This document shows, piece after piece, positions 1-30,216 of a stretch of 30,216 nt of DNA. Below the pieces are notes generated by a model, which ran no database searches, was not told where the DNA came from, and worked only from the letters and a program-made list of their open reading frames with translations. Numbering within the stretch: position 1 is the stretch's first letter; every line of letters starts with the position of its first letter. This stretch comes from a virus (lineage: Duplodnaviria; Heunggongvirae; Uroviricota; Caudoviricetes): IMG/VR virus record IMGVR_UViG_2537561604_000012, one strand, 5' to 3'. Both the position numbers and the translations under genes were made by a program.

Positions 1-296
1 CTATTTATCGGAAGGTTTATCCTGCTGCGGTTTGTTGTTGACCATATCGCACAACATAGAGAGCAGCATTAACCGTACTTTAAAGGGAGAATGACTAAAC
101 ACGCGCATACACCTCTTGAACTCATTCATAAGACCTCCTGACTTGCTAATCCCATCGATCCTTGAGGGATGATTGCATTACATACAGATATAGCACAGGC
201 TATATTATAAAGCATCAACTATCTGCGAAAAACAACAACTTACAGTGTTATCAATAAGTTACGTTGGTTAATGTCTGTGAGTATTCGGCAGTATTT

Positions 297-9002: not shown

Positions 9003-10774
9003 GCTGCCTCTTTCCTTACACCCCAGCGGGATTTAGGTTTGTTTTCATAATTAAGGGGTTCGTTATGCAGACCGTGGGTAATCGCCCAGAACGCCTCCGC
9101 GTGGCCGGTATCCTGGCTGCGGTCAGCGACAAACGTCATGGCGTTGCCGCTTTGTGTGGTGGTTCGGCGCACAGACATAAAGCTGGCGGCGATCTCTTTC
9201 AGGTTTTTATCCCACTCAATACGCTGGCTTTCCACCACGTCCACCGCTTTCAGTACCAGCTTATTTTTGGTGTTCAGGTCGTAACGAATAGGGACGGCCA
9301 CGCGCATGGCAAAATGCTGAATGTTGTCAAAAACACCCTGGCCAATGCCGGTAACGTCCACCCCCAGATATGTGAAGTTGTATTTTTTGAACAACTGCTC
9401 GATCTGTTTTGCCTGGTACCGGAAGTTCATGCCTTTCCAGTAAATCACCTTCAGAACGCGGAACTTCTCCACGGCGAGCATCGGTGGGGCGATGATGACA
9501 AAACAGGACAAATCCCCGCTGCGAGCCGGGTCAAAGCCGCCCCACACTGGCCTGTCACCGAATGGCCGCGCTGCATCTGGGTTGTGATCCTGCCAGGTGT
9601 CGATTTCAACGCCGCAGGCTTCCAGGTCGGAAAAGCTGAAAACGGAATCTTTGCTGTCAACGAACACGCACATATAGAGCATGTTAAAAGTGGCGTCGTT
9701 GTAGCGGTTGCGAAGTTTCTCGATGTTCGCCAGGTTGAAACCGCCCGCAATGGCATCTTCCATCGTAATGACGTAGCGCCATTGCCCATCCGGGCAGAGT
9801 CGCCCGCCGTCACGCATTTCGTTAAAGGAAGGAAACTTAATGGCCGCACGTTTTTTACTGCCCTGTTTCCACTCATCGCCCGTCCAGAACGGGTACGCCT
9901 GGTGCGTTTTTGCCGATGGCGTTGAAAAATAGGTGGTACGCCACTTGTCATGCGTGGCCATTGCGCTGGCCACTTCGTTAAGTTTTGCAAAGTTTGGTAC
10001 CCAGAAATATTCGTCACAGTACAGGTGGCCACTGTAGGACTGGGCGGTGTTTTTGTTGGTGGAGAGAAAACGCAGTTCTGCGCCGTTGCTTAAGCGGATC
10101 GGGTTACCGGTCAGCGTAATACCGAAATACTGCTCTGCAATATTCACGATGTAAGACCGGAACACTTCAGCCTGAGCCTTTGACGCTGACAGAAAGATTT
10201 GCGGATCGCCGGTCATCACCGCGTTTTCAAACGCTTCAAACGCAAAATACCAGGTCGCACCGATCTGGCGGCTTTTCAGGATATTCCTGACAAGCTGGCC
10301 AATGTTATTGCGCAGGTGTTTCTGATATTCAAAAAGATGTTCCTCAGCCCATGCGTCAAAGTCCTCCTGCGTCAGCGAGGTAATATCGTTTTTCTTGTAC
10401 TTCCGTTTGCTGCGCGGTTCGTCGTCATTGTTGTCCCGCGCAGCTGCTTGCCCGGAACTCTGACCGCTGGCCATTTTCTCTTTGTGTTTATTACTCTGCG
10501 CACGCAGTTTCGTGGCATGAGCAATGAGCATGTCCATTTCTTTCAGGTCGAGATCGGTTTTGTTATCGCGGCTGGCCAGCAGTTGGTAACGGCGTTCAAT
10601 CGCTTCCTCTGTGCTTTCAAAACTGAGCAAATCCGCCCAGCTGTATTTCTCCGCCCAGTAGTAAACGATCCGCGCATTCGGCAGATTTAATTCAGATGCG
10701 ATTTCCTTTGGCGTATAGCGGCGCAGATAAAGTGCGCGAACAACGCCTTTTAATTCTTCAGAGTATTTAGCCAT
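8999..10774 (-). CDS. P: Terminase large (ATPase) subunit, P2 gpP-like
   Basis: 591 aa (P2 P ~590 aa); Walker A-like KSRQIGAT and Walker B-like LYCDEYF; divergent from scaffold gene as in P2. Confidence 0.9.
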   Translation of the reverse strand: MAKYSEELKGVVRALYLRRYTPKEIASELNLPNARIVYYWAEKYSWADLLSFESTEEAIERRYQLLASRDNKTDLDLKEMDMLIAHATKLRAQSNKHKEKMASGQSSGQAAARDNNDDEPRSKRKYKKNDITSLTQEDFDAWAEEHLFEYQKHLRNNIGQLVRNILKSRQIGATWYFAFEAFENAVMTGDPQIFLSASKAQAEVFRSYIVNIAEQYFGITLTGNPIRLSNGAELRFLSTNKNTAQSYSGHLYCDEYFWVPNFAKLNEVASAMATHDKWRTTYFSTPSAKTHQAYPFWTGDEWKQGSKKRAAIKFPSFNEMRDGGRLCPDGQWRYVITMEDAIAGGFNLANIEKLRNRYNDATFNMLYMCVFVDSKDSVFSFSDLEACGVEIDTWQDHNPDAARPFGDRPVWGGFDPARSGDLSCFVIIAPPMLAVEKFRVLKVIYWKGMNFRYQAKQIEQLFKKYNFTYLGVDVTGIGQGVFDNIQHFAMRVAVPIRYDLNTKNKLVLKAVDVVESQRIEWDKNLKEIAASFMSVRRTTTQSGNAMTFVADRSQDTGHAEAFWAITHGLHNEPLNYENKPKSRWGVRKEAA

Positions 10775-10826
10775 GCGGATAATTATGCCGTGGCTGTGAT
10801 GAAAAAACGGTGGTGTTAATTCGTGT

Positions 10827-10855
10827 CTGTTCGGTAAAGCGTTATAACCGAACTG
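10827..10855. promoter_or_regulatory. Dyad-symmetry element GTTCGGT-N11-ACCGAAC in divergent P/O late promoter region; candidate late-activator (Ogr-like) binding site
   Basis: Perfect 7-bp inverted repeat at 10829-10835 / 10847-10853 in 161-bp intergenic region between divergent P and O genes. Does not fit the canonical TGT-N12-ACA spacing exactly. Confidence 0.35.
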
Positions 10856-10935
10856 TTCAGAATAAAGCGTAATGCGGTGGCGGTTTTATTTGGCAATAAT
10901 TGATTTGCAGCGTCAGGGAGTGGAACAGGGGGGAT

Positions 10936-11739
10936 ATGTCACATTTAAAAACTGACTGGCTGTGTGTTGCTACTGAAGGGGATACCGTTGACGGCAGGGT
11001 AATTAAACGGCAGTGGATCATTGATATGGGGGAAACCTATGACTATAGCCACTATGTCGCTTTAATCTGGCCAGAACATGAGGATGATTGCGGGAATTTT
11101 GGTGAAGTGCTGGAAGCCACCTGGAATGATGGTGAAGATGGACTGGCACGGTTATATGTCAGCCTTTGCCCGAATATGCGTCTGATTTTCGCAAATCATG
11201 AAGATCAGCTTTTGTTCTTCTCCATTGAGCCGGAAGAAAACTGGCGCGGTAGCGGGCGTACTTACCTGAAAGGGCTGGCGGTAACAGATACACCTGCCAG
11301 CGTTGGCACCACACGGCTGCGTTTTAGTAGTCGGCGCAATAAATTAACAAAGCAGGGATATTACAGTTGTGTAATTTCCCGTGACGGAAAAATTAAACAG
11401 GAAGCAAGAATGAAGAACTGGCAGAAACGGTTTGGTATTAAGCCAAAGTTTGAAGATGAAACGCCACAGGATAATCCTGCCCCGGATGAAGATAAATTAC
11501 AGGCGCTTGCCAATGTAGTGAACGATCTGGAAGCGCGAGTGGCGAAAATTGAAAATCAACTGAATGACGTTCAGGGTGATGTTGACACAATCGCTGAAGT
11601 GGTGGATACGCAGGAATTTGCGGCAATCCGCGATAATGCAAAAGAAATCGTAACCCGCTTTAACGATCTGGGTAATAAAAACACCCGTACACCGGGGCGT
11701 ACTATTAAAGATAAAGCCGGGAAATTTAATTTCCTGTAA
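10936..11739 (+). CDS. O: Capsid scaffolding protein, P2 gpO-like
   Basis: First ATG of ORF (track start 10900 is TTG); GGGGGG/GGGAG upstream; position divergent from P and upstream of major capsid gene; C-terminal coiled-coil-like segment. Confidence 0.75.
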   Translation: MSHLKTDWLCVATEGDTVDGRVIKRQWIIDMGETYDYSHYVALIWPEHEDDCGNFGEVLEATWNDGEDGLARLYVSLCPNMRLIFANHEDQLLFFSIEPEENWRGSGRTYLKGLAVTDTPASVGTTRLRFSSRRNKLTKQGYYSCVISRDGKIKQEARMKNWQKRFGIKPKFEDETPQDNPAPDEDKLQALANVVNDLEARVAKIENQLNDVQGDVDTIAEVVDTQEFAAIRDNAKEIVTRFNDLGNKNTRTPGRTIKDKAGKFNFL

Positions 11740-11801
11740 TTCGCTTTATTGCTGATTAGTCCAGAACATATTTTTAAATCGCTTAATTGCGAGGGAGTTT
11801 T

Positions 11802-12824
11802 ATGCACCTTAATAATCGTGCGCGGGATTTACTGGATAAATACTCGGCGGGGATGGCGCAGCAGTTTGGTGCGCGTGATACCAGTCGATATTTTTCCCTG
11901 AATGACCCGCAGGAAAATGCGCTGCGTCTTGCGCTGCTGGAGTCCGTCGAGTTCCTGAACATGATCACCTGTCTGGATGTTGACCAGCTGAGTGGCCAGG
12001 TGATCTCTGTCGGTTCCTCTGTGCTGCATACCGGCCGCAGCGAAAATGGCCGTTTCATTCGTCAGGTAGGCGTTGACGGTAATGACTATTCCCTGGTTGA
12101 AACAGACAGCTGCGCCGCACTGCGCTGGGATCTGCTTTCTGTCTGGGCAAACGCCGGTAAGGACGAAAACGAGTTTTACAACCTGGTACAGGCATTCACC
12201 ACGCAGGCTTTTGCGCTGGACATGTTGCGCATTGGTTTTAATGGTAAGAGCCGGGCGAAAACCACTGATCCGGTAGCAAACCCGAACGGTGAAGATGTGA
12301 ACATCGGCTGGCATGAGCGTATGAAAACGCTGCTGGGTGGCAATCAGATTATGACCGATCCCGTGGTGCTCGATGAGGCAGGGGATTACAAGTCACTGGA
12401 TGCAATGGCGTCTGATCTGATTAACGCCAAAATCCCGGCACAGTTCCGCAATGACCCGCGTCTGGTTGTCCTGGTCGGTGCCGATCTGGTCGCTGCTGAA
12501 CAGTACCGACTGTATCAGGCAGCAGACCGTCCGACTGAAAAAATTGCTGCGCAGATGCTGGGAAGCACCATTGCTGGCCGTCAGGCCATTATTCCGCCGT
12601 TTATGCCGGGTAAACGCATGGTGGTTACGCCGCTGTCTAACCTGCACATCTACACCCAGCGCAATACCCGTATGCGTAAGGCGGAGTTTGTTGAAGATCG
12701 TAAGCAGTTCGAAAACAAATACCTGCGCAATGAAGGTTACGCGGTGGAAGTACCGGAGCTGTATGCGGCCATTGATGAATCCGCTGTGACAATCGGCAAA
12801 GTCTCCGAACCGGTGGAGGGCTGA
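11802..12824 (+). CDS. N: Major capsid protein, P2 gpN-like
   Basis: ATG 11802 with GAGGGA 5 nt upstream; segments IGFNGKSRAKTTDPVANPNGEDVNIGW and GDYKSLDAMASDL...DPRLVVLVGADL closely resemble P2 gpN as I recall it. Confidence 0.85.
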   Translation: MHLNNRARDLLDKYSAGMAQQFGARDTSRYFSLNDPQENALRLALLESVEFLNMITCLDVDQLSGQVISVGSSVLHTGRSENGRFIRQVGVDGNDYSLVETDSCAALRWDLLSVWANAGKDENEFYNLVQAFTTQAFALDMLRIGFNGKSRAKTTDPVANPNGEDVNIGWHERMKTLLGGNQIMTDPVVLDEAGDYKSLDAMASDLINAKIPAQFRNDPRLVVLVGADLVAAEQYRLYQAADRPTEKIAAQMLGSTIAGRQAIIPPFMPGKRMVVTPLSNLHIYTQRNTRMRKAEFVEDRKQFENKYLRNEGYAVEVPELYAAIDESAVTIGKVSEPVEG

Positions 12825-26872: not shown

Positions 26873-27836
26873 AAGCCATTACCCGGAACTGGCATCCGGG
26901 CTTCATTTGCCAAAGACGGCCAGAGTCGTGGCGCATTCAGAGCCAGTAAAAAGCGGTAACTTTGCCGATCCCTTCCGGCCACGTTACGCCGTGGACGTGC
27001 AACTGCTTGACGCAGACGGAAACCCGGACAATCAGACGCCTGTTTACTCAGCGGTGCCGCTGCCGGTACCAATGGCCGGGAATGATTCAGGTATGTTTCA
27101 GTTCCCGCCTGAAGGGACGCTGGTTGAGGTCGCATTCACAGGAGGCAGACCGGATAAACCCTTTATCAGGCAGACGCTGCCGGATGGCACCAGTCTGCCG
27201 GACGTTAAACCCGGTGAGCAATTACAGCAGCAGCGGGAAGAAGTATCCCTGAGGGTGACTCAGGCGGGTGACTGGGTAAGGCAGACCGATCAGACCATCA
27301 GCGAAACATCAATGGTGCGAACCGTAAAAGCCGATACAGAACAGCGCGAACTGGTCAGCCGTGAAACCACGGTGAAAGCCACGGATAAAACCACGGTACT
27401 GGGAACCGCCACATTGCTGGCCGGAGCCATCCAGCAGGTAAGCGCCGGTGATTATAGCCAGGCGGTGAAAGGTAACAGGCTGGCCAGTATTGAAGGAAAC
27501 GAAGAAACGGACATAGCAGGACAGCAGTCCACTAAAGTGGGCGGTGCTGTAGCCGTGGAGGTTGGCGAAAGTCTGACAGAGAAGATTGCCGCACTGCGTA
27601 AATCAGTGGCTGCTGGCGGTCAGCAGGTCATGGGGGCAACTGTCCATATTGGCAGTGAGAGCATCAACGCCCTGACCATGATGCTGGATACCATTGATTT
27701 ACTGGCAGAGCTTGCGCAGCAATGCGCGAACCATTCGCACCCCACCGTTGGAACTCCAACCAATGCCGCCGCGTTCACACTGACGGCGACGAAAGCCGGG
27801 CAGACCCGGAGCAAATACCAGAATATAATTGCCTGA
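26820..27836 (+). CDS. Baseplate spike / gpV (gp5 OB-fold)-like protein; start uncertain
   Basis: OB-fold-type motif VPLPVPMAGNDSGMFQFPPEGTLVEVAFTGGRPDKPFI; last gene before terminator. First ATG 26820 lacks RBS; frame opens at 26817. Confidence 0.5.
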   Translation: MTRWRSHGRRETAQRQIESHYPELASGLHLPKTARVVAHSEPVKSGNFADPFRPRYAVDVQLLDADGNPDNQTPVYSAVPLPVPMAGNDSGMFQFPPEGTLVEVAFTGGRPDKPFIRQTLPDGTSLPDVKPGEQLQQQREEVSLRVTQAGDWVRQTDQTISETSMVRTVKADTEQRELVSRETTVKATDKTTVLGTATLLAGAIQQVSAGDYSQAVKGNRLASIEGNEETDIAGQQSTKVGGAVAVEVGESLTEKIAALRKSVAAGGQQVMGATVHIGSESINALTMMLDTIDLLAELAQQCANHSHPTVGTPTNAAAFTLTATKAGQTRSKYQNIIA

Positions 27837-27848
27837 CCATGATAACAC

Positions 27849-27873
27849 GCCCGCATAATGCGGGCTTTTTTAT
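27849..27873 (+). terminator. Rho-independent terminator ending the late/tail operon
   Basis: GCCCGC-ataat-GCGGGC followed by TTTTTTAT, 13 nt after stop 27836. Confidence 0.75.
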
Positions 27874-28263
27874 ACCCTTCTCCAGACGCAGCAGAACGCA
27901 CCCTCAGCACTTTAGGCAACAAATTAACCCAACTCAACACACATAAAAGATCGTGCGCATGGCGCTGCGTTGGCGCGACGATGCACCGACAAAATAAATC
28001 TTTCGCAGACAAAAACGGCGCTACACCGCACCCGCCTGCGGTTTCTGGATCTGGAAAATTTTTCTGTTTTATTTTTCTACAAAACAGACCGCCAGACCGC
28101 GCCGCTGCTGGCGGCTTTGCGGAGAACTGAAACTGAAATGATTGAAAAGGATTTCACTTTTTTTCAGTGAAAAGGATCTGTGAAGGATCGATGGGAAAAT
28201 ATAACTATCAGAATATAAAAGAGAAATTGAATTTTAGGTGGCGTTTGTGGATCGTTAGTTAAA

Positions 28264-28272
28264 GGGGGGGGG
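28264..28272. repeat. Homopolymeric G9 tract (intergenic)
   Basis: aaaGGGGGGGGGatatt read directly; lies between the two flanking terminators. Confidence 0.9.
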
Positions 28273-28281
28273 ATATTCTGT

Positions 28282-28313
28282 AAAAAAGCCCGCGACATCA
28301 GATGTGGCGCGGG
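28282..28313 (-). terminator. Rho-independent terminator for minus-strand glycosyltransferase-like gene
   Basis: On minus strand: stem CCCGCG...CGCGGG with inner ACATC/GATGT pairing, followed by TTTTTT (plus 28282-28287 aaaaaa); 40 nt downstream of stop at 28353. Confidence 0.55.
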
Positions 28314-28352
28314 ATGGATAGAAATTTATTCTTATAGAACAACTGAAAAAAA

Positions 28353-29069
28353 TTACTTTAAACTGAGTTTAAAATTTTTGAATTTACCATACAGGGTATC
28401 GCGTACAGAAAAGGAAGGAACCCAATTGAATCCTGTTCGCCATGGGCGAGGACTACCGTGAAAGCATACAACTGAAACATCATCAGGAACTTTGCCAGTA
28501 GCATAATCTGATGCCAAGTCAGGGTTGTAACCTATCATTTTACGTGTGGCTATATGGCATTTGTAACTAACAACAGATCCGGGAATTATATCTTGCCACA
28601 ATACAGGTTTCATGACGCTACCCAGAAACCCCTGATCACCCCATTTATCTTCTGTTTGGCATTCATGCATATTTTTTTCGGGGTCAGTCCAGAACGCATC
28701 CCAAACATATTGTTTGATAGACGCAGGAATGAACATAATGGATGAGTTAACCCTGGAAGGGTGGTTAAACTCCCGCAGCATAGTGAACTCTTTCGCCGCA
28801 TCAAAGATTTTGATATCACCAGTTATGACAACATCAACGTCAAAATAAAGCAGATCCTTATCACCTATTACCGGATGGTTTGGATTAAAAAGCTCAATCT
28901 TAGACCACCAACCTGGAAGGTTGTGCATTAACGGTGCGGTTTCAACACCAGGGATACTTCCAGCATCAGTTAAGCAAATTGAAGGTATGCCTTTAAATTG
29001 GCTATGCAGCCATTGTGCGTGTTTGGGGGTAAATTCTTTACCGCATTTAAGGACGGATACAATCAGCAT
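28353..29069 (-). CDS. Putative GT-A-type glycosyltransferase-like protein (DxD motif); low-GC cargo gene
   Basis: 238 aa; LLYFDVDVVITGDI (DxD-like) after N-terminal beta-alpha-type segment MLIVSVLKCGKEF; convergent to phage late operon, own terminator; AT-richer than phage genes. Family not established. Confidence 0.4.
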   Translation of the reverse strand: MLIVSVLKCGKEFTPKHAQWLHSQFKGIPSICLTDAGSIPGVETAPLMHNLPGWWSKIELFNPNHPVIGDKDLLYFDVDVVITGDIKIFDAAKEFTMLREFNHPSRVNSSIMFIPASIKQYVWDAFWTDPEKNMHECQTEDKWGDQGFLGSVMKPVLWQDIIPGSVVSYKCHIATRKMIGYNPDLASDYATGKVPDDVSVVCFHGSPRPWRTGFNWVPSFSVRDTLYGKFKNFKLSLK

Positions 29070-29250
29070 ATGGGAATCCCATTCTTTAGAGCAATAGTGT
29101 GCATTTTTTGAACATCGGCAATACTAAAATAAATAGTCAGGGCATAATTTTCTTAGGTAAGAGTCATGATGCCTCATGCCATTCCTTACGTAAAGCTAGG
29201 CAGACTCAGCATAATGAGGGGACAAAAAGGGGACGCTGACCACTACAAAC

Positions 29251-29277
29251 AAAAAAGCCACTCCGTCAGAAGTGGCT
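29251..29277 (-). terminator. Hairpin + U-tract (minus strand), second terminator-like element
   Basis: AGCCACT-ccgtcaga-AGTGGCT with aaaaaa on plus side (T-tract on minus). Confidence 0.45.
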
Positions 29278-29432
29278 TAATTATATGATTATAAAGCTAA
29301 AATTTGGTGGCCCCTTGGACTTGAACCAGCGCCCGGGCGATTATAAGTCTTATGGTGTAACCTTTTGATATTTATATATAAATTTTATTTTTATGTGAAT
29401 TTTAAGGATCTCTAACCGCTTTATTTTTGGCT

Positions 29433-29464
29433 AAAAAACCCGCAGTTGTAGCAATGATGCGGGT
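29433..29464 (-). terminator. Rho-independent terminator of minus-strand two-gene operon
   Basis: On minus strand ACCCGCA-13 nt loop-TGCGGGT followed by TTTTTT; 62 nt downstream of small ORF stop. Confidence 0.55.
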
Positions 29465-29525
29465 TGAGTTAGTCTTTAAAACTGAAATTGATCAGCCATA
29501 GCGTTCATAGGTAGCTGCGTATGCA

Positions 29526-29690
29526 TTAACGTTTTTTAGGTGGTGGGGCTACTTGCTGCGTTTGCTGCGTTTGCCGTGGTGGTTGATAACCATTGTTCTG
29601 CTGATTTGGCCTACTTGATGGTTGATATCCCTCATTTATAGGTTGCCAGCCATCATATTTAGTATTGTTTGCCGGTTTTTCTTCAGCCAT
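29526..29690 (-). CDS. Small Gln/Pro/Asn-rich protein (54 aa), not in ORF track
   Basis: ATG (revcomp of 29688-29690) with GTGAGGTAAAAA RBS; translates MAEEKPANNTKYDGWQPINEGYQPSSRPNQQNNGYQPPRQTQQTQQVAPPPKKR; start overlaps upstream gene stop (ATGGCTGA). Confidence 0.45.
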   Translation of the reverse strand: MAEEKPANNTKYDGWQPINEGYQPSSRPNQQNNGYQPPRQTQQTQQVAPPPKKR

Positions 29691-30216
29691 TTTTTACCTC
29701 ACTATTGTTGGGAGAATGTAATTTTACCTCAATAAACTCAACACTTTCTATTTCATTAGTCAATATTATTATGCCTAATGTATCAGCTAGTTCGTGATCG
29801 AAATCGCCATTCTCATCAAGCGCCCAATGTTTCTCAAGATAGATTTGTTCGGGTTCTGGACTATTGGATGCAAATGAGTCACTTCCATAAAAACCACCAT
29901 ATTTTTTACCGTTTTTTAGTGTTACCAATACCCAGCAGCGTTGTCTGGTTGAGAAGAAGTAGTCCCAAGAGCGCCCTATAGGGTGTGGAAGAATATTTTT
30001 GACTTTTTCCCAGTTACGAATTTTTAGCAATGCAACAGGTAATAGTACAGGTATTACAATTAAAACTAAAAAGTAAAAAATGTAATATAAAATAGGGTGT
30101 TTCAAAAAAATGTCATTTGTTTCAATTAGATAAATTGGTATTAAAAGAAATGAAAAATTTATGCAACTATATGAAACAACGTCAATTAAAACTTTTGATG
30201 TATCCAAATCAATTGA
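29683..30216 (-). CDS. Membrane protein with N-terminal TM helices and soluble C-terminal domain; 5' end probably beyond window
   Basis: Track ORF starts at TTG (30205-30207) and frame remains open to window edge; two hydrophobic helices (FSFLLIPIYLI; ILYYIFYFLVLIVIPVLLPVALL); very AT-rich. Confidence 0.5.
   Translation of the reverse strand, partial: SIDLDTSKVLIDVVSYSCINFSFLLIPIYLIETNDIFLKHPILYYIFYFLVLIVIPVLLPVALLKIRNWEKVKNILPHPIGRSWDYFFSTRQRCWVLVTLKNGKKYGGFYGSDSFASNSPEPEQIYLEKHWALDENGDFDHELADTLGIIILTNEIESVEFIEVKLHSPNNSEVKNG

Follow-up and report, generated by a model that had tools for sequence, protein, structure and literature searches.

A GT8-like glycosyltransferase gene in the variable cargo slot of a P2/HP1-type Escherichia coli prophage, and its possible role in lipopolysaccharide core modification

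The DNA analysed here, called the window, is a stretch of 30,216 nucleotides (IMG/VR virus record IMGVR_UViG_2537561604_000012, Caudoviricetes) that carries a P2/HP1-type prophage whose integration site in Escherichia coli lies between mntS and mntR. Close to the right end of the window lies a single minus-strand gene (28353-29069), hereafter the cargo gene, and the product of this gene is our subject. The left attachment site (attL) is within the window, and the right one (attR) falls at the window-equivalent position ~32510, about 2.3 kb past the window end, as mapped in E. coli Combat13F7 (L001, 16711-16721). Combat13F7 holds a deleted version of the same prophage, again between mntS and mntR, and is 100% identical to the final 2.4 kb of the window. 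Given that the cargo gene is located between attL and attR, it belongs to the element and not to the flanking chromosome. Sister prophages are present in 24 complete E. coli genomes, the closest sharing 95-97% identity with the backbone of the window prophage; their similarity ends at 28256, and one sister, examined at the identical chromosomal location, carries a serine-O-acetyltransferase-like gene together with an AAA ATPase gene in place of this cargo. We therefore regard the DNA from 28257 to attR as a variable cargo slot. The cargo gene itself was found in one of 5,426 complete E. coli genomes, which sets it apart from the core chromosome, and the identical protein is indexed in 785 blocks of a large assembly collection. 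The gene is thus inside a prophage, yet dispensable and variable among otherwise collinear phages, as expected from the original prediction of a moron at the right end or flank of a prophage. We consider it a sound but fairly ordinary prophage accessory gene of this kind.

The cargo gene appears to be transcriptionally autonomous, as a separate, convergent, AT-rich unit between the last tail gene and attR. The last gene of the late operon, on the plus strand, stops at 27836 and is followed by a terminator that faces the cargo gene. On the opposite strand, a hairpin read directly from the sequence (CCCGCG..CACAUCUGAUGU..CGCGGG) begins 40 nt past the stop codon of the cargo gene and leads into a U-tract; a simple terminator scanner overlooked this structure because its stem contains a bulge. 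Folding of the RNA from 28270-28352 on the minus strand gave -16 kcal/mol (z=-2.2). Since a further terminator lies upstream, the gene is bounded by terminators on both sides and is therefore an insulated unit. Its GC content is 41.6% (37% at third codon positions) against 52.0% for the integrase-to-spike region (297-27836). The convergent orientation, the dedicated terminator, and the AT-richness, all of which had been noted in the original prediction, were confirmed. Flanking terminators and deviant GC content are consistent with an independent transcription unit, and a promoter scan, to which we return below, had no candidate above threshold. An activator site of the P2 type (TGT-N12-ACA) is absent upstream of the gene, which is uninformative, as the motif is not enriched window-wide (5 found, 8.2 expected).

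Several observations argue that the reading frame is not a chance open reading frame (ORF), among them the size of the family given below. An initial search returned 283 homologues of the cargo protein at E<=1e-3, and in the closest clade the proportion of non-synonymous differences (pN) is 0.11-0.18, compared to 0.72-0.88 for synonymous differences (pS, which is saturated). The protein matches PHROG 1962 with E=4.2e-81 (residues 1-223 on profile positions 1-224 of 230), a family labelled 'glycosyltransferase; moron, auxiliary metabolic gene and host takeover', and tblastn aligned it to PmgQ of phage P1 and HdmD of phage P7 at 39.5-40% identity over 93% of its length. Three motifs, DxD, GDQG, and HG.PRP, are common to PmgQ, HdmD, and the cargo protein. 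By sequence, the protein is therefore a new member of the known, already annotated and functionally uncharacterised PmgQ/PHROG 1962 family, which supplies the family name that the original prediction could not give. Direct searches with the protein had no match in Pfam, even at E<=10, or in NCBIfam, and none among PADLOC families at E<=0.1. P1 pmgQ is non-essential (PMC10695390), and we found no functional study of PmgQ, HdmD, or pmgO/pmgP in the literature. What the present analysis adds to this annotation is the GT8 assignment described next, exact placement of the gene in a slot of a prophage bounded by attachment sites, and the recognition that family members fall into three genomic settings (head module, waa cluster, and solo cargo).

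GT8 comprises retaining glycosyltransferases and takes in core enzymes of lipopolysaccharide (LPS) and lipooligosaccharide. A search of the Protein Data Bank (PDB) with the single sequence returned only spurious strigolactone-esterase matches at E about 0.05, and given that the single-sequence searches were empty, a family profile was needed to make the link to GT8. The profile collected 5,880 clusters at 50% identity (E<=1e-3) and revealed homology to GT8, the CAZy family of LgtC, WaaO/WaaJ-type transferases, glycogenin, AgtA, and GlyE, at E about 1e-6 (AgtA, 6.6e-7; glycogenin, 5.5e-6, against the PDB). The alignment is in register at the shared DxD, (N)SG, GDQG, and ..G..[KR]PW motifs, with the family DxD placed on the D-A-D of glycogenin and AgtA and the other two acceptor-side motifs on NSG and GDQG of glycogenin. 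In the cargo protein, these correspond to F-D77-V-D79-V-V, a GDQG at 144-147, and C202-F-H204-G-x-P-R-P-W210. Across an alignment of 52 diverse homologues, K57, D77, and D145 are invariant, D79, S109, G144, and H204 are present in 51, and Q146 in 48, so that the DxD motif proposed from the sequence alone (FDVDVV) holds throughout the family.

An AlphaFold model built from the family alignment (mean predicted local distance difference test, pLDDT, 96.8; predicted template modelling score, pTM, 0.93) predicts a GT-A fold, i.e. a single Rossmann-like domain, nearest to solved GT8 structures, in agreement with the GT-A-like enzyme first suspected. Among viral models, the nearest belong to proteins of uncultured phages that either bear a GT8 label or are fused to MptE-like domains. 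Viral enzymes that glycosylate virions, such as the capsid glycosyltransferases of mycobacteriophages and A64R of chlorovirus PBCV-1, had a structural score below that of GT8, and glycosylating toxins scored only 9-10. Neither by closest fold nor by added delivery or target-binding domains does the cargo protein belong with the glycosylating toxins and effectors (TcdA/B of GT44, Lgt/SetA, and NleB/SseK). The cargo protein differs from typical GT8 enzymes in its size (238 residues vs ~280-340 for LgtC and WaaJ), and its identity to GT8 is 10-16%. PF01501 (Glyco_transf_8) matched 16 of the 52 homologues weakly (best E=7e-4), and because the cargo protein does not reach the Pfam gathering threshold, we file it as GT8-like GT-A and not as a Pfam GT8 member. 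Taken together, sequence and model identify the product as a predicted soluble, cytoplasmic, metal-dependent (DxD) GT-A glycosyltransferase of a divergent GT8-like family with P1 PmgQ as its prototype. Two other groups of enzymes that we tried as characterised homologues are unrelated: KdoT/GnaT of Acinetobacter baumannii have the GT-B fold, and the GT-A enzymes acting on phage DNA are JGT-like.

Where family members reside provides the main clue to function. The close clade is found as solo cargo in unrelated temperate phages of the P2/HP1-like, P2-like, Mu-like, and lambda-like types, at positions after tail-fibre or fibre-assembly genes or beside the attachment site and integrase. In the window element, the gene follows the spike gene, in phage Chuche the homologue follows the tail genes, and in the lambda-like phage Chlobot it is located between a fibre-assembly gene and the integrase. 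A P2-like prophage of E. albertii carries it after fibre-assembly genes, sometimes together with a gene of the GT4 family, and it is convergent to a fibre-assembly gene in Citrobacter prophages as well as in Mu-like prophages of Klebsiella aerogenes and Salmonella, the latter with a hexapeptide-repeat acetyltransferase. In one P2-like phage (L028), it is positioned between ogr/portal and a replication gene, the roles of these genes being read solely from the order of the ORFs and their N-terminal sequences. In a comparison with five homologous loci, nucleotide similarity extends to the borders of the coding sequence and no further, and no conserved flanking DNA that would mark a mobile cassette was detected there. 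Members with at least 49% identity share a basic C-terminal tail (..FS.K..L..K.K..K..; residues ~219-238 of the cargo protein, ending ..KFKNFKLSLK), which is missing from the P1 clade and from a clade of short proteins; in the P1 clade the tail is acidic (..SSFFERESE). Homologues with 50-74% identity also occur as stand-alone chromosomal genes with no phage genes nearby, namely in two Shimwellia and two Vitreoscilla species and at one of two Salmonella loci; in both Shimwellia species, the gene is flanked by copA-like and GntR-family genes. Moreover, prophage remnants that have lost almost all structural genes still encode the identical protein in intact form (at least 14 of the 24 contigs read).

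A second group of relatives is found in the waa clusters for LPS core biosynthesis, where the homologues are 40-51% identical to the cargo protein. In Pectobacterium sp. B1J-3, the gene order is WaaQ, GT4, WaaP, phosphoethanolamine transferase, GT8, WaaZ-like, homologue, and GT25; WaaQ and WaaP score above the NCBIfam cut-offs, and the homologue (51% identity) starts 10 nt downstream of the WaaZ-like gene and has the same motifs as the cargo protein. Klebsiella sp. I138 carries its homologue between WaaF/WaaC/WaaZ-like and WaaQ/GT4/GT4/GT2 genes, the same flanking markers recur in representatives of two further Klebsiella species and in two Raoultella, and in Morganella morganii the homologue is beside WaaZ-like, WaaQ, and GT4 genes; these Klebsiella, Raoultella, and Morganella homologues are 41-44% identical to the cargo protein. 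With 221-244 residues, these proteins are similar in size to the cargo protein, and none has an NCBIfam name. In contrast to the cargo gene, which itself resides in a prophage, they are chromosomal, co-oriented with core-biosynthesis genes, and adjacent to a WaaZ-like gene (WaaZ being a type of Kdo, i.e. 3-deoxy-D-manno-octulosonic acid, III transferase) that is lacking in the window.

The third context is that of phage head and neck modules, in which distant members (~200 residues, 30-45% identical) occur beside methyltransferase, PIG-L-like, and MptE-like genes. Among 80 species-representative loci, terminase, portal, or capsid markers were present within 10 kb of the gene in 21, and a PmgO/PmgP-like gene was present in ~32, mostly just upstream. 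The latter grouping is seen in P1 itself (pmgO-pmgP-ppp-pmgQ; L007 2144-4702) and in phiNP (L006 4466-6303), and the same partners, or a fusion to an MptE-like domain, were observed at L036 4827-6660 and at many of the loci L131-L197. P1 pmgQ thus shares an operon with pmgO and pmgP (both weak MptE-like matches) and ppp behind C1 operators and a late promoter, whereas the window gene is a solo convergent cargo gene. More generally, family members are fused to, or adjoin, glycan-building enzymes such as MptE-like domains, S-adenosylmethionine-dependent methyltransferases, and PIG-L. One fusion protein displayed weak matches to both the MptE-like and the WaaZ_KDO_III Pfam models, and the MptE-like partner of phages and the WaaZ-like partner of waa clusters may both be keto-sugar transferases of one kind; our connection of the phage partner gene with WaaZ is a guess. 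An assignment of P1 PmgO/PmgP and the phiNP neighbours as WaaZ-type Kdo transferases found no support, as NCBIfam had no match and Pfam returned only sub-threshold MptE-like hits.

Modification of the host LPS core, resulting in receptor masking or lysogenic conversion, is in our view the most likely role of the cargo enzyme, and we put its probability at roughly one half (about 0.5). A host-directed role of this type is favoured because relatives are found in waa clusters, because phage-free chromosomal copies exist, and because the protein has survived in otherwise gutted remnants. P2-type phages and P1 adsorb to the LPS core. Membrane association is common among LPS-core transferases that lack transmembrane helices (PMC12856342). 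In a lysogen, the enzyme would use a uridine diphosphate (UDP)-hexose as donor and add an alpha-linked sugar to the core oligosaccharide during its assembly on the cytoplasmic side of the inner membrane. A common phage receptor would be altered with the core, and the outcome could be lysogenic conversion, or masking of the receptor against superinfection, for which one Leloir-type enzyme would suffice where Gtr systems have three parts. Among the roles that had originally been considered for this gene, modification of the host surface is therefore the one that gained ground, given the homologues in waa clusters.

Several observations weigh against this interpretation. Our literature search recovered no biochemical or genetic characterisation of any family member, and acceptor specificity of glycosyltransferases can change at 40-51% identity, which is the distance to the waa-cluster homologues. 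A neighbour-joining tree places the Pectobacterium protein beside, and not inside, the prophage-cargo clade, and the window gene has neither the WaaZ-like partner of the waa clusters nor the PmgO-like partner of many phages. At the active site, the histidine of the GT8 motif HxxGxxKPW, which acts as the third metal ligand, falls on the column of C202, and the conserved H204 is two residues further on (C202-F-H204-G-x-P-[RK]-P-W in the family). The presence of many distant relatives in head and neck modules suggests that at least some members of the family act on virions. A sigma-70-like promoter scan of 29070-29254 had no hit above threshold, and inspection by eye yielded only candidates matching 8 of 12 positions. 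The basic C-terminal tail was considered as an LgtC-like, amphipathic, membrane-anchoring helix, and this idea was dropped given that its hydrophobic moment (0.16-0.35 in most tails) is not above that of shuffled tails; as the tail is not significantly amphipathic, a membrane anchor is unsupported.

The alternatives differ from LPS-core modification mainly in the acceptor. Were the enzyme to decorate capsid, tail, or fibre proteins of the phage late in infection, one would look to the distant members located among portal, capsid, and connector genes, the structural markers near one quarter of the species-representative loci (21/80), the 'putative morphogenetic' operon in which P1 pmgQ is grouped with pmgO and pmgP, and the E. 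albertii P2-like homologue that is co-directional with, and immediately downstream of, the fibre genes. Genome reports on mycobacteriophages likewise read phage glycosyltransferases as capsid-glycosylating enzymes (PMC11256854). For the window gene, however, this is unlikely: it faces the late operon and is enclosed by terminators, it lacks the partner genes of the head modules, the identical protein has been kept in remnants without structural genes, and relatives are present in waa clusters as well as, for the same clade, as solo chromosomal genes of Shimwellia, Vitreoscilla, and Salmonella. Nor do we expect the acceptor to be another lipid-linked envelope glycan, although such a function at the cytoplasmic face, be it on the O-antigen unit, enterobacterial common antigen, colanic acid, or capsule, would still amount to lysogenic conversion and draws on the same enzyme-class evidence as LPS-core modification. 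The acetyltransferase and GT4 genes that accompany some homologues, and the serine-O-acetyltransferase-like gene that takes the same slot in a sister prophage, are typical of polysaccharide tailoring and speak for such a glycan; yet all chromosomal contexts with recognisable sugar-pathway neighbours are waa core clusters (WaaQ, WaaP, WaaC, WaaF, WaaZ-like), and none is an O-antigen or capsule locus, which makes this option about as unlikely as virion glycosylation.

Glycosylation of an intracellular protein, of the host or of an incoming phage, would point to a function in defence or anti-defence, or to a toxin-like activity, and we consider it improbable. Protein-directed GT8 enzymes (glycogenin, AgtA, and GlyE) are among the top structural matches, the same cargo slot contains a candidate defence gene of the PDC-S64 family, and the L028 homologue occupies the slot in which P2 carries old and tin (as judged from ORF order and N-terminal sequences). 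On the other hand, PADLOC did not recognise the cargo protein, its 238 residues contain no delivery or targeting domain, two terminators and a transfer RNA (tRNA) relic separate the gene from the defence-like unit, and three further loci (H9-H11) match the DUF6338 part of the slot only, with DUF6338 alone annotated beneath the match. Restriction evasion through glycosylation of modified phage bases, which the original prediction had also entertained as DNA modification, is very improbable. Phage GT-A enzymes that act on 5-hydroxymethylcytosine do exist (bioRxiv 10.1101/2023.12.21.572611), but they are JGT/TarP-like with R...DDD...EDY/F motifs and are encoded beside C5-methyltransferase/TET or thymidylate-synthase-like genes, whereas the sister prophage is annotated with a Dam-type adenine methylase only and no gene for a hydroxymethyl-base pathway, and the predicted fold matches GT8 rather than JGT or the T4 glucosyltransferases.

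If the enzyme does act on the LPS core, it would represent a different solution to a familiar problem. GtrABC modules of temperate phages infecting Shigella and Salmonella are likewise carried by prophages, beside the tail genes or the attachment site, and modify a surface glycan that phages use as a receptor. They consist of a flippase, a bactoprenol glucosyltransferase of the GT2 family, and a serotype-specific GT-C transferase, three membrane proteins that act on periplasmic O-antigen, in contrast to the one soluble GT8-like enzyme encoded here; no Gtr-like gene was found in the slot. A broader proposal, possible but on balance doubtful, is that PmgQ-type GT8-like enzymes constitute a widespread and unrecognised phage route to remodel the host LPS core from within the cell, acting either alone or paired with WaaZ/MptE-like partners (as in P1 pmgO-pmgP-pmgQ and many head-module cassettes). 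The solo, basic-tailed cargo clade would then be a one-gene device for receptor masking (superinfection exclusion), mechanistically unlike Gtr, that moves among the cargo hotspots of P2-, Mu-, and lambda-like phages.

Should LPS-core modification hold true for the cargo enzyme, a single small cytoplasmic prophage protein could change a receptor that numerous coliphages rely on, among them P1, P2-type phages, and many lytic ones, with bearing on phage host range, resistance to phage therapy, and LPS-core typing of E. coli. It would also give a first functional handle on a family of ~5,900 clusters (50% identity) that has no Pfam model of its own and that includes the classic unexplained P1 pmgQ gene and unnamed waa-cluster genes of Klebsiella, Raoultella, Morganella, and Pectobacterium. 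Should it prove wrong, the identification of the gene as a glycosyltransferase moron would still stand. Given the GT8 assignment, the placement in the slot, and the split of genomic contexts, the LPS-core hypothesis is directly testable. The features of the locus are collected in Table 1.

Table 1. Features of the cargo gene, its surroundings, and the prophage attachment site in the window
Feature	Position	Strand	Details
GT8-like GT-A glycosyltransferase coding sequence (PmgQ / PHROG 1962 family)	28353..29069	-	ATG start, intact, 238 amino acids
Late (tail) operon terminator facing the glycosyltransferase gene	27849..27865	+	Found by scan: 7-bp stem with 6 GC pairs, then TTTTTTAT
Intrinsic terminator of the glycosyltransferase gene	28282..28313	-	Hairpin 28313-28289, then CUUUUUU 28288-28282
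Upstream intrinsic terminator, separating the gene from the 54-amino-acid ORF/DUF6338 transcription unit	29255..29278	-	Found by scan: 10-bp stem, then TTTTGTTTGT
5' region expected to hold the gene's own promoter and ribosome-binding site	29070..29254	-	GGGA 7 nt ahead of the ATG
attL core GCTATATTATA	198..208	+	Empty K-12 mntS-mntR site aligned to both junctions
Variable cargo slot, continuing to attR past the window end	28257..30216	.	38.4% GC within the window
Contents of the slot			Glycosyltransferase gene, tRNA relic, 54-amino-acid ORF, DUF6338 gene, PDC-S64 candidate defence gene, two small ORFs

Upstream of the cargo gene, the slot continues with a Q/P-rich ORF of 54 codons (29526-29690, minus strand), which overlaps the start of a gene for a DUF6338 membrane protein (29683-30216+, minus strand, running past the window end); the remainder of the slot can be followed in L001 (13727-16527), and a 341-residue slot protein matches the PADLOC candidate defence family PDC-S64 (E=2.5e-47). 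Between the cargo gene and this unit lies a relic of tRNA-Ile(CAU) (29305-29352, minus strand) that retains the 3' two-thirds of the molecule and matches K-12 ileX from the anticodon stem to the CCA, apart from a C-to-T substitution in the anticodon and the loss of 2 nt from the T stem. ARAGORN reported no intact tRNA, an Rfam scan of 27700-30216 returned nothing meaningful, and neither program calls the relic. It resembles an attachment site left behind by an element that integrates into tRNA genes, or else a phage tRNA that has decayed, and its presence suggests that the cargo slot is a mosaic.

Another feature of the region is a stretch of ~275 bp without a convincing ORF (27982-28256), which separates the cargo slot from the late-operon terminator. 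Many sister prophages share it at 88-91% identity regardless of their cargo, and it contains a terminator-like hairpin on the minus strand (28015-28032). This segment could be a recombination anchor for the exchange of cargo, or it could produce a small RNA.

The window prophage and its relatives are also marked by decay. Relative to its sisters, the window has lost 31 bp between two 9-bp direct repeats (GCGCAACGG) at 26853-26864, and this loss is a frameshift that converts the single last tail gene of the sisters (566-567 codons) into two overlapping ORFs (26165-26872 and 26820-27836). The sister gene encodes a gp5/V-like spike with matches to Phage_base_V and Gp5_C, and the window prophage is probably tail-defective. 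Several decay states of the same prophage were observed (L001, i.e. E. coli Combat13F7, 10298-12037; also L008, L010, L013, and L014). One of them is a deletion from ~3000 to 26900 (window positions) that fuses an early gene to the spike gene in a hybrid ORF of 579-580 codons, another extends from capsid to spike, and a third, of 2.85 kb, took the attR core as well as the DUF6338 and PDC-S64 genes. In every one of these states, the glycosyltransferase gene has remained intact. The arrangement in L013, where the glycosyltransferase is the sole cargo, was considered as an ancestral state and rejected: it is a derived deletion in which the attR core was lost as well. As to the integration site, the core shared by attL and attR is an 11-bp sequence (GCTATATTATA) within the divergent mntS-mntR promoter region that directly adjoins the palindromic ATAGCACAGGCTAT element upstream of mntS, and integration places mntS and mntR more than 30 kb apart.

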